Source: an uncultured Acidimicrobiia bacterium (GTDB lineage Bacteria > Actinomycetota > Acidimicrobiia > Acidimicrobiales > AC-14). Taken from it: a stretch of DNA of 64,000 nucleotides. The stretch lies in the NCBI GenBank assembly GCA_963836205.1, contig CAWIIV010000006.1, positions 64,001-128,000 of the forward strand, read 5' to 3'. Each line of letters opens with the position of its first letter. Within the stretch, counting starts at the first letter, position 1. Made by a program: the position numbers and the translations under genes. The notes beneath the pieces are model-generated. The model saw only the letters and a program-made list of their open reading frames with translations, was not told the DNA's origin and searched no databases. Below are positions 43,748 to 51,416 of this stretch, one piece after another.

Positions 43748-44203
43748 CTACCCGGCAAGCACGCCGTTGACCAGCGCATTCCAGGTGATCGGGCCGACGA
43801 TGCCGTCGACCACCAGGTCCGCCGCCTCCTGGAAGCCGCGCACGGCCGCATCCGTCTTCGGCCCGAAGATCCCGTCGACCTTGAGGCCCTTCGACGGGTC
43901 GCCCGACAGGTTCCGGGCCTGGAACTGGCTCTGGACGGCGCGCACCGCCTCACCGTTGCTCCCGACCTCGACATCGACGATCAGCGCGGCCCAGGTCTTG
44001 TCCCCGACGACGCCGTCGACCTTCAGGCCGCGCTTGCCCTGGAAGGCCTTCACCGCCGCGGTCGTGGCCGGACCGAAGACCCCGTCGACCTTCACCGTGT
44101 CCCCGTGGTGGCGGAGGAGGTACTCGACGGTCTTGATGGGCTCCTTGCTCAACGGTCCGGGCGACGGTTGCCCTTCCCGTTCGATGGGCCACTGCAATGC
44201 CAT
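43748..44203 (-). CDS. Peptidoglycan-binding protein (two PG_binding_1 repeats)
   Basis: VDGVFGPATTAAVKAFQ...VDGVVG..TW, twice. Confidence 0.9.
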   Translation of the reverse strand: MALQWPIEREGQPSPGPLSKEPIKTVEYLLRHHGDTVKVDGVFGPATTAAVKAFQGKRGLKVDGVVGDKTWAALIVDVEVGSNGEAVRAVQSQFQARNLSGDPSKGLKVDGIFGPKTDAAVRGFQEAADLVVDGIVGPITWNALVNGVLAG

Positions 44204-44394
44204 GGCGACTCCTCCCGCGGGGGTGCGATCTGCGTCCATCGTCGCGCGACGGGTTCGGTTGATCGGGTCAGGGGCCGACGGTTTGCGATCGTTCATCGGT
44301 AGGGACGTGATGCAGGCTCGCACGGCCGGTTTCACGGCCCCATCGACGCACGAAACGCGGGCTCCGGCGTGCGGCTGGCAGGCAGAATTCGCCT

Positions 44395-44715
44395 GTGGAA
44401 CAGTCCGTGACATCCATCGAAGCCGACGACGTCGGCCTCCGGGGGGTCGGGTCCAACGGCCGCCCGTGGCAGATCGGCTGGAGCGACCTCGTGGCGGTCG
44501 ACATCCGGACCACCTCGCGGGGACCATTCGAGGACGACGTCTTCTACGTGCTCACCGATCGAGCGGGCCTGGTCGTGATCATCCCGCAGGACCTCACATC
44601 GACGAGTGTGCTCGGCCGGCTACAACAACTCCCGGGATTCGACAACGAGACCTTCATCGCCGCCATGGGCTGCACCGACGACTCGACCTTCGTCTGCTGG
44701 CGCGCGGGGACCTGA
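44395..44715 (+). CDS. Hypothetical protein
   Basis: 106 aa: I.WSDL..V.IRTT..GPF.DDVF...LQQLPGFD. Confidence 0.65.
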   Translation: MEQSVTSIEADDVGLRGVGSNGRPWQIGWSDLVAVDIRTTSRGPFEDDVFYVLTDRAGLVVIIPQDLTSTSVLGRLQQLPGFDNETFIAAMGCTDDSTFVCWRAGT

Positions 44716-45725
44716 CTGGGGCGGGCGCAGCCGGCGGCCACAGCGTAAAGCGGTGCCACCGAGGTCGTGCGTCGATTCGGCGGGAGCGTGATGACTGCGA
44801 AGTGGACCGGACAGGCTCACTGAGCAAGCCGATGCCGGTTGTCGTCGAAGAGCTGCCGACCCGCCTCGGTTAGAACCCGATAGTCGCCATCCTTCCGCAG
44901 ACTCGCCGTGCCTTGGTAGAAGCCCGCCACACCTCGCGGGTCGTAGCCCTCCTGGACAGCGAGATCACGCGCCACGCTGTAGTGGTGCCGCCCGTCCGGC
45001 GCCTCGTAGAAGTGCTTCAGGTACCGAAGAAGCCGGACCATGCGCCAACCCGGCTCCCTGGCCTCCTCAGGCGTGATCGGCTCGATCGCATCGCCGATCA
45101 AGTCCGCAAGGTCGTCGGAGCGCAGCCGTTGACCGGGGTCGGCCCTTCGGCCAGCACCGAACCTCACCCCCTCCGCCTCCAGAACGAGGTGAATGTCTCG
45201 TCCATCGTTCGGGTCACTCCATCGAAACGCGTCGGCCACACGACCCTCCGACGTGAGAACCCGATGAGCATTGAGCAGGTCCGCCGTCCTCGCCAAGTGC
45301 TGGCCGACTGGGACCTGGTGAGAGCCGATCAGCTCAGCCAGATCGCCGTAGGTGGTCCAGGACCCCGTCGGTAGAGCTGCGAGTGCAGCGTGGAGGCGCC
45401 TCCAGTCCCGACCCTCCTCGGGTTCCTCGACGTCTGCCAACGGGGCGGGCCAGATTGCGATCGCGCGATCCGCCAGCTCATCCGCTCGGGCGAGAATGTC
45501 GGCGCGCCCCCACGTTTCCGCAGGCACGATGGCCCGATTCAGCTCGAGGTGGCTCCCATGGAGGATCTCCTGCTTCCGTTCGAACGGCCGGTTGGACAGC
45601 TGCCCGTTGTACGCCGTCACTGTGAGATTCCCAAGCGTGTGCAAGAGCTCAGAGTGCACCGCTGCTGGGTCCTGACCCTCCGCCGCGATCGCTTCTCTCC
45701 ATTCGTCAGTTAGCGACTGGGGCAT

Positions 45726-47664
45726 GGTGCGTCCTCGAAGCTGGACCAGACCAGCGGGTGTGAGTCCCGCCCGGGTAATCGCCGGAGAGCCCGGTAGCAG
45801 GCCCCGGTTCGTCGCCGAGAGGCGGCGGGCTGAGCGGGGCGTCAAGAGCCTCTTCGGAGGGAGCAAGCGTGCGGGCCGTAGCGCCACCAGGCGTGAGTCC
45901 TGCAGCCTCGTCAGATGTACAACGGGGGAGCCGAGCCGCTCATGTCACGGCCAAGGCCCACGTCCGACCGACTGGCGTTCCGGAATGCCCCTGGTCGGGT
46001 CCCCCCGGGGTATGGGGAGCGGCACGTACGCAAGGTCAGGTTCGGAAGGGGAGAGACCCGTCTGCGCAGCCTCGTCAGCAAAGACCGCTCGTATAAGCCA
46101 GTGGTGAAATCGAGCGGAGCGCAGCGGGAGTCCGACGGGGTCGTAGTACCGCCAGCCGGCGGGAAGGGCCCCGACTTTGGTCACGCCGACGATGGGGGTA
46201 AGCACAAGGGCATGGCCGGGACCGCCCGGTCCAAATCCCCCGCCGGGCAGACGCCCGTCGACAACGTGCGAAAACTCCAGAACCGGCTATGGGCTGCGGC
46301 CAAGCAGTCTCCGGGTCGCCGCTTCCACGCCCTGTACGACCGCATCCACCGGAGTGACGTCCTGTGGGAGGCGTGGAGGCGGGTCCGAGCCAATCGTGGC
46401 GCCGCCGGGGTCGATCGTCTGACCCTGGAGGCGGTGGAGGACTACGGGGTCGGGCGCATGCTCGACGAGCTTTCCCGTGACCTCCGTGCAGGCAACTACC
46501 GCCCGGCACCTGTGCGCCGGGTGGAGATCCCCAAGCCCGACGGCCGGATGCGGCCCCTGGGCATCCCCACCGTGCGCGACCGGGTGTGCCAGGCGGCAGC
46601 CAAGATCGTCCTCGAGCCCATCTTCGAGGCCGACTTCCTGCCGACCAGCTTCGGTTTCCGACCGAAGCGCTCGGCCACCGACGCCCTGGAAGCCATCCGG
46701 GTGGCGTTCCCCCGAGGACGGCAGTTCGTCTTCGAGGCCGACATCCGCGACTTCTTCGGCCAGATCGACCACGACCGCCTCCTGGTCGAGGTCGAACGGC
46801 GCGTCTCGGACCGGCGGGTGCTCAAGCTCATCCGCCAGTGGCTGCGTGCAGGGGTGCTGGTCGAGGGGGTGCGCTCCGAGACGGTCACGGGCACGCCCCA
46901 GGGCGGGGTCATCTCCCCGCTGCTGGCCAACGTCTACCTGCACGCCTTCGACCGGTCCTGGGCCGAGTCCGGCACCGGCGAGCTCGTCCGCTACGCGGAC
47001 GACTTCGTGGTGTTGTGCACGACCCGGGAACAAGCCGATGAAGCTCAATTGCGGGCAGCCGCCATGTTGGGCGACCTCGGTCTGAGCCTGCACCCGGACA
47101 AGACCCGCGTGGTCGATCTTCGGGAGGGCAAGGAGGGCTTCGACTTCCTGGGCTGTCACCTTCACGCCCGCATGTCGGGTCGCCTGTGGGAGCAGCGGCG
47201 CATCGTCCGCTACTACCTGCACCGGTGGCCGTCACAGCGGTCCATGAAGCGGGCACGACTGCGAATCAAGGCCCTCACCGGTCGGAGCCGGCTCGGTTTG
47301 GAGTTGGAGGACGTGATCGACGACCTCAACCTGTTCCTTCGGGGATGGGGCAACTACTTCCGCACCGGGAACGCGGCCGACAAGTTCGTCTCCCTCGACC
47401 GGCACGTCGTGTGGCGGCTCAAGCGCCTCTTGATCAAGAAGCGGGGCCGCAACCTGCGAGCCGGCCAGGCCGAGCGTTGGACGCACGCCTGGTTCCACGA
47501 CCAGGGCCTGCACCAGCTCATGGGCACCATCCGTTACCCGAAGGCTGCGTAACCATGTCCAGAAGACCATCGGTGAGCCGTGTGCGGGAAAACCGCACGC
47601 ACGGAATCGAAAGGGGGAGGGGGAAACGTGCTCGTCAGCGAGCGGCGCGCCCCTGACAACCAAT
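45726..47664 (+). mobile_element. Group II intron, antisense to its host gene (1939 nt)
   Basis: 5' (G)GTGCG; domain V GAGCCGTGTGCGGGAAAACCGCACGCACGG near 47575-47604; 3' AT. Removal restores the host's HVMPQ. EBS1 candidate ATGCCCC at 45985-45991. Confidence 0.92.
46212..47552 (+). CDS. ltrA: Intron-encoded reverse transcriptase/maturase, no endonuclease domain
   Basis: GAAGVD, RPLGIPTVRDR, GTPQGGVISPLLAN, RYADD, GFDFLG, LRGWGNYF; ends after the maturase domain. Confidence 0.95.
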   Translation: MAGTARSKSPAGQTPVDNVRKLQNRLWAAAKQSPGRRFHALYDRIHRSDVLWEAWRRVRANRGAAGVDRLTLEAVEDYGVGRMLDELSRDLRAGNYRPAPVRRVEIPKPDGRMRPLGIPTVRDRVCQAAAKIVLEPIFEADFLPTSFGFRPKRSATDALEAIRVAFPRGRQFVFEADIRDFFGQIDHDRLLVEVERRVSDRRVLKLIRQWLRAGVLVEGVRSETVTGTPQGGVISPLLANVYLHAFDRSWAESGTGELVRYADDFVVLCTTREQADEAQLRAAAMLGDLGLSLHPDKTRVVDLREGKEGFDFLGCHLHARMSGRLWEQRRIVRYYLHRWPSQRSMKRARLRIKALTGRSRLGLELEDVIDDLNLFLRGWGNYFRTGNAADKFVSLDRHVVWRLKRLLIKKRGRNLRAGQAERWTHAWFHDQGLHQLMGTIRYPKAA

Positions 47665-48292
47665 GACGTGCTCAATCGAGAGCTTGGACGCTGACCAATC
47701 CACGGGCTCGGCGTGCTTGTAGCTGTCCTCCAGCCGTTGAAAGACCAGCATCTTCTGGTTCTGCCGACCCTGGTAATAGAACGGCTGGCTGCGAATCGCG
47801 ACACGGAGACGACGATCTGACGGCCAATACTTGCGCGGCCCTGACAAGGCGTGCCTGACGGCCTCGACGATCGGCATCTTCACTGGCAGCTGCGACACCA
47901 GTGAACTGAATACGCGGTTGAGGTTGTTGGTCGGGACACTCGCGATCATTCGTCGAACAAGGAAGCTCTCGACGTACGAGAGGGCTTCGAGCACTTCGAC
48001 GGGGGTGCACTCGCCGGCCTCGCGAAGGAGGTAGAGATGAAGCAGCAGCGGGTACGTCGTTGACGCTCCCCAGGCATCGAGCCGGGTGAGCGCCCCTCTG
48101 ACCTCCGGATCCTCCTCGTATTCGGGCTGGACGATCCGGCGGAACAGGGCTGCTCGTCGAACAAGCTCTCGTACTTCCGCTTCGACGCCAGTCTCGTCGC
48201 CTTCGAGGCCTCGCAGCCGATCTTGTTGAGCTCTGTAGATGTCAGGCCGTTTGATCGTGTTCCGACCTCGGACGACGAGATCGACGAAAACC

Positions 48293-49596
48293 GGCTCTCC
48301 TGACCACGATGTGGATCAGGACGCCTCTTTCCAGACCACCCGCTCGTGCGGCAGCTTGATGTCGATGGGCCCGGCAGCGAGCATGACGAGGGCCAGGGCC
48401 GCGTCGGCGGAATGGAACCCGTACGCCCTGCGGATGATGAGGCGGACCTTGGTGTTGAAGCCCTCCACCCGGCCGTTGGAGATCCCGTGCTCGACGGCGT
48501 TGAGGATCATCTCCCGACGCTGGCGCATGGTCTTGGCCACCTTGACGAACGGCGCCAGCCGCGATCTCTGGGCTCGGGCGCACCACCGGTCGAGAAGCTC
48601 GCCCGCCTCGTCGCGGGTGAGGTCGCCGGCCAGGATGGCCCGGAACTGCTCCTTCATCTCATAGGCCCGCCACATCCCGCCCCGGTTGCGTCGGATGCGC
48701 TTGAGCTGGGCGGCCTGGGTGCTGGTCAGGTCCTCGGGGTTCTTCAGCAGGGCCCACCGGGCTCCCTTGAAGTCCTTGGCCCAGCGGTCGTCGGGAAGCC
48801 GGCGCAGCTGGTTCCACAGGTCCCGGCGGACCTCGTCGAGAGCGTCGCCCACCAGGCACACGAGGTGGAACGGATCGGCGCACACGATGGCCTGGGGAGC
48901 GTGTCCCTCGGCCTTGACGCTCTTGAGGTAGGCCGGGCCCAGATCCATGGAAATGGCGCTGAGCTGGGACGATCGCTGAAAATGAGTGTGTAGGAGATGG
49001 TAAGGAGGTAGGTGGTGTGGAGAGATGTGAGATGGAGGCGTCGAGGCGGAGCTAGTGTGCGGGCGCCGTCGCCAGAAGCAGGAGAGACCGCCGTGCGGTC
49101 CATCCTCGTCGCCAGCCACGCCAGCAGGTCGTCGAGGTCCCGGGTGAGGTTCGCCCCCGGCCGGGCGAAGGGGACGGCCTCCACCACCACGCCGTGGTCG
49201 GGGCAACGAAGACGGCGCAGGCTGGCCCGGACCTCCAGCCGCCAGGTGCCCAGGTCGAGGTGGCGCCACCACGACGGCGCCGGCCGGGTGTCGTAGCGGA
49301 ACCGGGTCTTGAACCCGCAATGGGGGCAGACCAGCCGCCGCCGGCGCAGGGCCACGGTGACGATCACGATCGTGGTCAGGAACTCCACGGCGACGACGTT
49401 GACGTCGTCGAGCCGAAGGAGGCGCTTGAATGCGGTGGTGACGCGCACGGGTTGAGGACCTCCCGGTTCAGGGGTGTGAGAAGTCCGTGAACCTTGGCCC
49501 GGCCCGTGCGCGTCACGCGGATACCGGAAGACCTGCTCAGCCAGCCACTACACGCCTGCCGGCTCCGATCCCATCCACACTTGGGTCAGGAGAGCC
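48293..49596 (-). mobile_element. ISL3-family insertion sequence (1304 bp as assembled)
   Basis: TIRs GGCTCTCCTGACCACGATGTGGAT and revcomp GGCTCTCCTGACCCAAGTGTGGAT. 8-bp TSD CGAAAACC at 48285-48292 and 49597-49604. Confidence 0.95.
48316..49448 (-). pseudogene. ISL3 transposase with the central part missing
   Basis: CPHCG, WRHLD, CPDHGVVVEAVPFA, then ISMDL...ADPFH...SNGRVEGFNTKV...AYGF. About 48975-49090 is unrelated low-complexity sequence. Confidence 0.85.
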
Positions 49597-50590
49597 CGAA
49601 AACCAAGGTCTCGAGTTGAGCGGGAGTGAGTTGCTCCTGCATCGGTCGCCAGAGCTGCTCGTAGACGACCTCCGATCGCGTTGGCAGGAGCATGAAGACG
49701 AAGTTACGAAGCAGGTCAGCCTGCGTGAGGCGGACGCCGCGATCGTTCAGTGACTCGAAGATACGATGGACGTTGTCGTTCGCATCGGCTGTGATCGCTA
49801 CGAAATGAAGTCTCTGGCGCACCACTGCTTCGATACGTTCAGGGTCGAGCGGCTCGTTGTCAGGGCCCACCTGTGTCAGACGGGAACGGAAGAACGAATA
49901 GGCGCTGCCTATTCCGCCGCGCGCTTCGCTTGGTCGGCTCGGTCGACGCACGCGAAGAACGCCTGACGGTCGACCTGCGTAGGAAGCAGACGGTAGAACG
50001 ACGACCCCTTCCCGTACTTGTTGATGAGGTACCGCTCGTTGAAGCGCTCTACTGCCCCCGGATCGTTCGCCGCCACGTGATCGCGCAAAGCGCACAGGGC
50101 CACGAGGAGTGTCGTGAGGCGCTGTTGGCCATCGATTACGAGAAACGGGGTGACACCGTGAGCCTGAATAAGAGGTGACGGGGCGAGAACAAGACTCCCG
50201 AGAAAGTGCGTCGGCGCCCGGCTATCGAGCTTGCCGAATTCATCCGGGGTGAGGACGTCGTACTGTTCAAGTACGTCCTCCCAGAGCTGGCTGAGCTGTG
50301 GCGAGCCCCAGGCGTATTGCCGCTGATACAGGGGAACCTGAAATTGCTTCTCGCCTTCTATGAGCTCCTTGAGAGTGCTCTCTCCGACCTGCATGCCCCC
50401 TACCAGCCCCACCGGGCGGGGAGGACACGGGTTGCGGCCCCCCGGATCGTGACCATCGGGAACTCACGCACCGTAACGCCCCGCCCGGCCCCGAGGTTCA
50501 TCGTCCTGTACCGCTGGACGAACAACCGGCGGCGACAGGGGCATGTCGATCTCGACTCGGGCCTGCGCTTCGGGCCGATGTAGCGCTGGG

Positions 50591-51341: not shown

Positions 51342-51416
51342 TGGAGCGGACGACGGGATTCGAACCCGCGACCCCAACCTTGGCAAGGTTGTGCTCTACC
51401 ACTGAGCCACGTCCGC
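51342..51416 (-). tRNA. tRNA-Gly(GCC)
   Basis: GCGGACG acceptor stem, TGGCTCAGTGGTAGAGC D-arm, anticodon GCC, GGTTCGAATCC T-arm, encoded CCA. Confidence 0.97.

Follow-up and report, generated by a model that had tools for sequence, protein, structure and literature searches.

A group II intron without an endonuclease domain in an Acidimicrobiia genome and the likely association of its lineage with leaderless start codons

The stretch of DNA analysed here, referred to as the window, comprises 64,000 nucleotides (nt) from an uncultured Acidimicrobiia bacterium (assembly GCA_963836205.1, contig CAWIIV010000006.1, positions 64,001 to 128,000). On its plus strand it contains a complete group II intron with an IIB-like structure and signs of recent mobility, which encodes a reverse transcriptase (RT) with a maturase region and without an endonuclease domain, and which lies antisense to a GmrSD-type restriction gene. 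Comparison of this intron with its relatives suggests that the lineage inserts at the start codons of leaderless genes and that its protein is read in the frame opened by the captured codon, the window copy being an insertion outside the usual target.

The intron, its copies and the interrupted gene

The presence of an endonuclease-less group II intron had been put forward in a preliminary description of the window, made from the letters alone, and was borne out by profile searches. The Rfam model RF02003 (group-II-D1D4-4) matched at positions 45752-45886 of the plus strand with 91.1 bits, against a gathering score of 49, and a partial match to RF02005 was also obtained. The intron open reading frame (ORF) carries the Pfam domains RVT_1 (3.7e-36) and GIIM (8.7e-16), ends around 27 residues past GIIM and shows no Pfam match to an endonuclease domain (D/En, HNH). 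It reaches 413.7 bits with the NCBIfam model TIGR04416 (cut-off 300), and the closest solved structure to its product is the GsI-IIC RT (1.6e-61). The RT frame of the window copy is intact. The elements of the intron and of its insertion site are the following, where EBS and IBS stand for exon-binding site and intron-binding site, respectively:

45711..45717, plus strand: IBS2 region of an off-target site, formed by the -10-like hexamer TAGCGA and the next base (cognate sequence TANNNT); three of the four pairs with EBS2 form
45723..45726, plus strand: IBS1, CATG (in cognate sites, C plus the start codon); G45726 is disputed, since it may either end the exon or begin the intron
45724..46107, plus strand: frame of 127 codons from the junction ATG through domains I-III
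45727..47665, plus strand: intron of 1939 nt in the favoured register, GUGCG...AAUG (alternative 45726-47664, GGUGCG...AAU)
45752..45886, plus strand: domain I segment (Rfam group-II-D1D4-4)
45836..45842, plus strand: GGGGCGU, candidate internal, alpha-like partner of the loop at 45985-45991
45914..45917, plus strand: putative EBS2, GAUG, in the internal loop GUCA-NANN-, covarying with the target
45941..45944, plus strand: putative EBS1, CAUG, in the terminal loop CUCAUGUCA (45939-47), covarying with the exon
45985..45991, plus strand: AUGCCCC, previously taken as EBS1 and more probably an intramolecular tertiary partner, being complementary to 45836-42
46013, plus strand: putative EBS3, U, the base after GGGGUA, which pairs with A47666
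46104..47552, plus strand: RT/maturase ORF without endonuclease domain, drawn from the GUG that overlaps the stop of the leader frame, a candidate start
46128..46134, plus strand: J2/3 (junction of domains II and III), AGUCCGA, with C46132, before GA, as candidate gamma
47574..47608, plus strand: domain V, GAGCCG...CGGAAUC, with AA in place of U opposite the G of the AGC triad
47613..47661, plus strand: domain VI, with G47613-C47661, G47614-C47660 and G47616-C47657 paired, A47659 as the bulged candidate and G47615 x A47658 mispaired
47662..47666, plus strand: 3' tail AAUG followed by A47666 (IBS3); ATG is recreated before the downstream sequence

Eight copies of the intron were detected in the genome by blastn. 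Three of them, including the window copy and one that ends at a contig edge, form subfamily A (start G-GTGCG) and are 100% identical over 1939, 1939 and 644 nt at different sites, which argues that the window variant is still mobile. One A copy occupies a cognate GTG start with a TACCAT hexamer, in a mog/moaB-like gene. The five copies of subfamily B (start G-TTGCG) are approximately 90% identical to the window copy. In two of these, L003 and L004 (contigs C7 and C15), the RT match is split (residues 1-150 and 144-445), which in otherwise near-identical copies would point to a frameshift or an assembly indel.

All the 5' junctions in the genome read ...[A/G]T G, and all the complete 3' junctions ...CCAAT G. 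T45725 and G45726 recur as T47664 and G47665, and the same repeat was found in 7/7 complete copies of this genome and in 66/66 relatives with both ends. Because T and G are present at both ends, three registers (45725-47663, 45726-47664 and 45727-47665) correspond to the same DNA. The boundaries proposed in the preliminary description, with the intron starting G-GTGCG at 45726 and ending AT at 47664, are one of these equivalent solutions, and the comparison with other copies that it had recommended leaves the register undecided at the DNA level: the termini are either GUGCG...UG or GGUGCG...AU, and the DNA is equal for both. The only base shown to be exonic is the purine before the T, which is A or G between introns that are 100% identical. 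This case illustrates that a short repeat at both junctions leaves boundary calls made from DNA ambiguous.

The interrupted gene is encoded on the minus strand and its two nearest pieces are:

44817..45725 (feature drawn to 45726), minus strand: downstream GmrSD piece, covering GmrSD_C profile positions 55-137, followed by an MGMT-like DNA-binding domain
47665..47994 (feature drawn as 47666..48315), minus strand: upstream GmrSD piece, whose last 54 residues cover GmrSD_C profile positions 1-54

When 1939 nt were removed in silico, a 519-aa frame was obtained on the minus strand in which positions 1-54 of GmrSD_C (DUF1524) are joined to positions 55-137. The length that had been given for restoring the host frame was therefore right, but the strand of the host had been missed. 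Since the intron is antisense to its host, it is not spliceable from the host mRNA and simply disrupts the gene; the window copy thus landed off target and inactivates GmrSD. At its site CATG is present and IBS3 matches, whereas the hexamer, TAGCGA, is imperfect. In a DNA search of 26 genomes for the empty GmrSD site, only the window genome and one 28-nt match at chance level were obtained.

Insertion sites and exon pairing in the lineage

Close relatives in other genomes have the same junction pattern. RT matches at E<=1e-60 were found in 17 of 61 genomes (a tally that includes the unpublished G015 and G017). A scan of one genome per species gave 80 loci, with RT identities of 49-90%, which according to the record titles belong to Actinomycetota, Chloroflexota, Gemmatimonadota, Planctomycetota, Myxococcota, Acidobacteriota, Pseudomonadota, Spirochaetota and Nitrospirota; cultured carriers include Embleya sp. 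NBC_00896, Sorangium sp. So ce176, Nannocystis pusilla Na p29 and Pelomonas dachongensis DC23W. Altogether 98 loci were examined. A recognisable 5' junction was present in 74, corresponding to 73 unique flanks, and the other 24 were cut by contig ends, carried other insertions or variant ends, or belonged to a sister clade. Many of these sequences are mutually related, and the counts given below are not independent.

The junctions common to about 70 relatives from many phyla are ...TANNNT-N6-8-RTG/GTGCG... and ...CUA*CCAAUG/N, the asterisk in the latter following the bulged A of domain VI. TANNNT was found in 70/73 flanks, its last base standing 9 nt (44 cases), 10 nt (22) or 11 nt (4) ahead of the junction G, with only five more instances elsewhere in the 40-nt flanks; the window copy, with TAGCGA, is one of the three exceptions. 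Exon position -1 is T in 73/73, position -2 shows 56 cases of A, 16 of G and one of T, and position -3 is C in 56. When the downstream ORFs were read from the junction ATG or GTG, an in-frame Pfam domain was present in 45/54, and in 29 of these 45 (hand count) the domain begins at most 25 residues from the start and at profile position 8 or lower. The genes include members of MoCF_biosynth, PIG-L, HIT, SOR_SNZ, tRNA-synt_1, tRNA-synt_1b, SmpB, TrmE_N, DegV, TP_methylase, CcdA and PhdYeFM. For the mog/moaB-like target, the orthologue is uninterrupted in 7/7 congeneric genomes, which show the hexamer, 6-7 nt and GTG or ATG. In an RT tree obtained by a quick search, a single clade of 64 rows contains every start-codon junction, with a Shimodaira-Hasegawa-like approximate likelihood ratio test (SH-aLRT) value of 99.

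We read this target as the promoter and start codon of putatively leaderless genes, with the intron in the sense orientation, and infer that transcription would start from the hexamers. In Mycobacterium tuberculosis, according to the text of PMC3898074, TANNNT is centred 7-12 bp upstream of purine start sites, without a -35 motif, and 26% of the genes are leaderless.

Pairing between intron and exon was evaluated against permuted targets. In 60 unique intron/site pairs the CA of the loop CUCAUGUCA is invariant. Exon position -2 is paired with EBS1 in 98% of the cases versus 92% with permuted targets, and position -3 in 98% versus 68% (0/2000 permutations), the pairs at -3 being G-C, A-U, U-A, U.G and C-G. 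Pairing at positions -4 to -7 was no better than chance, so that IBS1 is reduced to C-R-U-G. From this covariation, CAUG at 45941-45944 appears to behave as EBS1, with CAYG as the likely cognate rule. EBS2 pairs with positions 4-6 of the hexamer and the next base at frequencies of 0.83/1.00/0.93/0.74 (n=46), versus 0.49/1.00/0.53/0.41 with permuted targets, and the observed sum was reached in 0/2000 permutations. For EBS3, pairing with the base that follows the junction G was found in 50/51 cases, with all four Watson-Crick types represented (0/2000 permutations), and in 40/41 in a second extraction; with the junction G itself it would pair in 33/51. Exon pairing in this lineage is thus minimal: 4 + 4 + 1 bp.

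The preliminary description had assigned the role of EBS1 to the loop AUGCCCC (45985-45991), from its pairing with the exon GGGGCAT (45719-45725). That pairing does exist in the window (7/7), but at the other two copies with an identical sequence it drops to 6/7 and 5/7, and at the five B-type sites to 2-5/7 (hand count from the flanks), and it is CAUG that covaries instead. The same loop is complementary to GGGGCGU at 45836-42 in 6-7 of 7 positions in 11/12 unique pairs, the twelfth being a mis-hit of the regular expression, and the changes are mostly one-sided. These data suggest that AUGCCCC is more likely an intramolecular contact than EBS1.

Some structural variants were found along the way. 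A second element starting with GUGYG interrupts L053, L091 and L105 after or inside domain V (or in J5/6), in a twintron-like arrangement; L087 has an insertion of about 35 nt in the domain V loop, and the intron at L043 is 2789 nt long versus the usual length of around 1957 nt, the surplus lying between domain I and the RT ORF. In about 28 of the 73 unique flanks the third codon upstream of the start is an in-frame stop, a TAG or TAA in frame being a frequent beginning of the hexamer; this may be incidental.

Splice register and domains V and VI

Of the registers compatible with the DNA, 45727-47665 is in our opinion the somewhat more probable extent of the window intron, and 45726-47664 is the less likely alternative. 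According to the established EBS1/EBS3 rule, by which splicing occurs between two bases, one paired to the 5' end of EBS1 and the other to EBS3, the junctions would be RUG/GUGCG and AAUG/N. In the 45727-47665 register this gives a canonical 5' end, a branch A in seventh position from the end, and a 3' terminus UG, not AY. The invariant C45941, opposite the junction G, also favours a GUGCG start at 45727. In J2/3, the C before GA is invariant in the clade. The sister clade has G there (AGUCGGA), and its 3' ends resemble ...CCUCAC. If C46132 is gamma, which we assume by analogy, this difference would fit a gamma-gamma' switch in favour of 45727-47665. A different gamma-gamma' pair, A46128 with the 3'-terminal U, was considered and dropped, that A being C in L068, L073 and L076 with unchanged 3' ends.

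Domain VI was compared in 56 unique sequences covering domains V and VI. Two basal G-C pairs and a bulged A, homologous to A47659, are present in 56/56, and the next G-C pair up is invariant. The pair above the bulged A is G.U in 52, G-C in 2 and A-C in 1, and is G x A only in the subfamily of the window. The preliminary description had noticed no obvious bulged-A stem; the stem is there, and what stands of that remark is that the window copy has a mispair, G47615 x A47658, just above the candidate A. In minimum free energy folds a single-A bulge is predicted in L005 (B-type) and in L066, a distant member, and in the fold of the window copy the GG/CC pairs are kept with AA in an internal loop. 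Domain V of the window forms a hairpin with the AGC triad and the AC bulge, the triad G facing AA instead of U. Its unusual closure, GAGCCG...GGAAUC (with GGAAUC at 47603-47608), had been correctly pointed out before, and among the 56 sequences it is found only in the subfamily of the window; the wider clade has AAGC...GGUUU, with a canonical G.U, and the Actinomycetota-type clade ...GGAUU or GAGCUG...CAGAUC, with G.A. The additional A in domain V and the G x A mispair in domain VI are both known from the assembly alone. The loss of the branch point, and with it the linear or circular pathway that had been suggested, is not supported by the conserved bulged A and its predicted folding, and a lariat would be the expected product of the favoured register.

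Several observations speak against this choice of register. The base after the junction G can be G, U or UC (GGUGCG, GUUGCG, GUCGCG) and toggles at least five times within a shallow RT clade of 26 rows in the quick tree. The favoured register would consequently imply multi-copy active introns that start with UUGCG or UCGCG, and a UG terminus instead of AY in all members. In addition, introns of the GTT/GTC type are located at RTG-G sites in 14/18 unique cases, versus 3/23 for the GGT type (Fisher 7e-5, in related sequences). Expression data add nothing in its favour: four metatranscriptome runs (assembled contigs) yielded relatives 88-99% like the intron, all within 45721-47637, and these contigs contain no exon, branch or circle joint and no mapped ends, being uninformative on boundaries and pathway.

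Part of this evidence suits the reading given in the preliminary description, i.e. a true extra 5' base (GGUGCG...AAU, with junctions RU/G and AAU/G) in an intron that splices by hydrolysis or circle formation and moves as linear or circular RNA. In that case the 3' end would be a canonical AU, all 5' variants would keep the 5' G, GUUGCG and GUCGCG would keep GU, and the repeated toggling would be that of an unconstrained inserted base; in the GTT/GTC introns at RTG-G sites an EBS3 = C could pair with the +1 G. The weakened domain VI of the window, the extra A in its domain V and the score of 30.1 bits with RF00029, the general model of domains V and VI (gathering score 40, with domain VI mis-aligned past the intron end), also go in this direction. 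We nevertheless consider this reading unlikely, given the preference of EBS3 for the base after the G over the G itself, the invariant C45941 that faces this G, the probable role of AUGCCCC in a contact other than EBS1, the presence of the bulged A with conserved flanking pairs in all sequences, the covariation of EBS2 and the presence of an RT. Mitochondrial IIB1 introns in rRNA genes, described by Li, Costa, Bassi, Lai and Michel in 2011, are said to have 5'-terminal insertions, to have lost the branch point and EBS2, and often to carry LAGLIDADG genes. If the extra base were real, the intron of the window would resemble them in having one base between the 5' exon and GUGCG, but it differs from what is reported of them in that its lineage keeps the invariant A and a covarying EBS2 and encodes an RT. 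The 1-nt extension is kept alive by the GUUGCG and GUCGCG variants, and it is probably an artefact of register caused by the TG repeat.

Off-target copies that break the register were also sought. The pattern CCCCTGACNACCARTH gave three matches in 401 genomes of the class, none of them an intron, and CGCGCCCCTGACTACCAATH gave a single match in a metagenome collection, also not an intron; in both searches the denominator is unmeasured. Two single odd copies, L092 (5' ...CAU-U-UCGCG, 3' AAUG/G) and L094 (3' ...UAAU/C, 5' end off the contig), fit either register.

At the 3' junction, the intron end plus the junction G always spells a start codon in frame with the host ORF. This codon is mostly AUG, with GUG in L010, L027, L045, L083, L085 and L023, and ACG in L097.

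The captured start codon, proposed model and genomic surroundings

The codon at the junction opens a frame that extends into the intron. In 66 introns, with a GC content of 66%, this frame remains open for a median of 127 codons versus 17 and 3 in the other two, and it is free of stops for the first 160 codons in 29/66, versus 0/66 for each of the other frames. In 19/66 introns the junction ORF exceeds 600 codons and continues to the RT stop, and in the 7/7 fused ORFs tested it carries RVT_1 (from about residue 275-302) and GIIM. Fused forms are found in three RT subclades of the quick tree, and the fused state is therefore probably ancestral. In the window, the UGA that ends the leader frame (46105-07) overlaps a GUG (46104-06) of the RT frame, which has another GUG at 46101-03; other sublineages present cAUGAcc or UAG-GGC-AUG at the stop/start. 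From these features, the intron protein is probably translated from the leaderless AUG of the host.

Three facts weaken this interpretation and the link with promoters. In the sublineage of the window the leader frame ends after 121-128 codons and the RT is in a different frame. The domain I-III part lacks an excess of variation at third positions, with entropies by codon position of 0.57/0.65/0.68, compared with 0.64/0.50/1.13 in the RT part; in domains I-III openness alone appears to be conserved, as would be expected if ribosomes pass but the peptide is irrelevant. Finally, the last T of the hexamer can also be explained by its pairing with the invariant A of EBS2, so that the -10 box signal may partly reflect target recognition and not a promoter.

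Taking all the evidence together, we consider it reasonably likely that this is an endonuclease-less lineage that homes to leaderless start codons, with a reading frame that begins at the captured codon, and that the window copy is off target. In the mechanism we propose, the DNA target would consist of the -10 hexamer TANNNT, whose 3' half and next base would pair with EBS2, followed by a few unpaired bases, by C-RTG, paired with EBS1, and by the next base, paired with EBS3. In consequence, a promoter and a start codon would always immediately precede the intron. The frame of the captured codon would be kept free of stops across domains I-III, reaching the RT in many members, and in the sublineage of the window RT translation would occur via the 127-codon leader and the UGA that overlaps the GUG of the RT frame. 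The extra G would be the G of the captured start codon, and splicing would take place at RUG/GUGCG and AAUG/N, with a lariat formed through the branch A located seven bases from the end.

A more far-reaching proposal, which we advance only tentatively, is that the lineage, whose members span eight phyla or more, parasitises leaderless genes and would capture a promoter and a start codon at each site, with its RT read from the captured AUG through domains I-III, and would splice with a 5' exon of 2-3 bases, the promoter bubble perhaps serving as the entry point. A 5' exon formed by only 2-3 bases of a start codon would explain the 4-bp IBS1 and the altered termini, and the single-stranded promoter bubble may itself admit an element devoid of endonuclease.

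Alternatively, the window copy could be a relic that is immobile and decaying, with damage as the source of its odd domains V and VI and nothing functional about it. Its non-cognate, antisense site without a proper hexamer could be taken that way, as could the additional A in domain V and the G x A mispair in domain VI, unique to its subfamily among the 56 sequences. However, the existence of three 100%-identical copies at different sites, one of them at a cognate GTG start with TACCAT, together with an intact RT frame, makes this very unlikely. Still less likely is that TANNNT...RTG is a recognition sequence only, the link with promoters and leaderless genes and the open frame being by-products of a GC-rich sequence: EBS2 and EBS1 pairing does account for hexamer positions 4-6, C-RTG and the next base, and the absence of codon periodicity in domains I-III is in line with it, but positions 1-2 of the hexamer (TA) are conserved without matching RNA pairing, 45/54 junction codons start genes supported by Pfam, orthologous empty sites keep the hexamer and its spacing, the other two frames never stay open, and the long fused frame occurs in three separate subclades.

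Bacterial group II introns are usually regarded as promoterless, with their protein translated from signals of their own in domain IV. If the model proposed here is true, the systematic capture of a host promoter and a leaderless start would be a new way to express a retroelement. It would also mean that essential genes are interrupted at their third base, the targets including those for tRNA synthetases, SmpB, LigA and MnmE, and would raise the mechanistic question of how a ribozyme splices with a 5' exon of 2-3 nt. The junctions of these introns could in addition be used to mark leaderless genes across phyla from sequence only.

In some organellar group II introns the ORF is in frame with the upstream exon. 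The lineage described here would resemble them, by analogy, in that its protein appears to be read from a start supplied by the exon and through domain I, and would differ in that the exon gives only the start codon of a leaderless bacterial gene. Group IIC introns have a terminator or an attC hairpin as their target and lack EBS2 (PMC12584367). With them the lineage shares a very short IBS1 (4 bp), a conserved genomic signal, the absence of an endonuclease and the nearest solved RT, that of GsI-IIC; unlike them, it has an EBS2 that covaries and pairs with the hexamer, its target is TANNNT...RTG, i.e. a promoter element plus a start codon in our reading, instead of a hairpin, and it keeps a normal bulged A.

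The nearest known case is the specialised clade of subgroup IIB1, with an RT of the CL1 lineage, which inserts in the start or the stop codons of genes with housekeeping functions (Avi.groEL, EcKTE56.groEL) and is compared here through the summary of Michel et al. (2007) contained in PMC12584367, so that its start-codon members may overlap with ours. The groEL introns are located between bases 2 and 3 of the stop codon, which is rebuilt by the G of the intron, and in the member studied in that work the RT is of the CL1 lineage and includes an endonuclease domain, and there is a 5'-subterminal insertion of 300-700 nt (PMC12584367). The endonuclease-less lineage is likewise site-specific in or next to initiation codons, with the window copy itself being off target. 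It differs from the clade as summarised there in the absence of the endonuclease domain and of the 300-700-nt insertion, and in that its target includes a -10 hexamer and the captured start codon is continuous with its ORF. From the 5' end to the anchor motif of domain I there are 66-70 nt in most members and 96-115 nt in the others. RmInt1 and further lineages devoid of endonuclease (class D, E, F and g1-g4; PMC3552965) are similar in having an RT/maturase without endonuclease, an IIB-like RNA and many copies per genome; the comparison is by description only, and in the parts of PMC3552965 that describe them neither homing to start codons nor a fused ORF is mentioned. In a literature search with subscription papers and supplements outside its scope, we found no account of a lineage that lacks the endonuclease and resides at the start codons of leaderless genes, and none of intron ends GGUGCG or GUUGCG.

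The GmrSD gene of the window contains a further insertion. The features around the interrupted region are:

43748..44527, minus strand: ORF immediately downstream of what is left of GmrSD, in which PG_binding_1 is repeated twice (8.8e-34)
48316..49448, minus strand: insertion sequence of the ISL3 family (DDE_Tnp_ISL3, 1.1e-52), with zinc-ribbon and helix-turn-helix parts in a second, overlapping frame
49586..50412, minus strand: two overlapping ORFs with a DGQQR-type motif, recognised by eye and typical of the DUF262 N-terminal half of GmrSD; the N-terminal ORF with the motif is 49909..50412
51345..51416, minus strand: tRNA gene (RF00005, 72.9 bits)

The ISL3 element is located between the ORF with the DGQQR-type motif and the GmrSD_C pieces, also inside the GmrSD gene, which has therefore been struck by two mobile elements. 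The overlap of the two DGQQR-type ORFs suggests a frameshift or an assembly indel.

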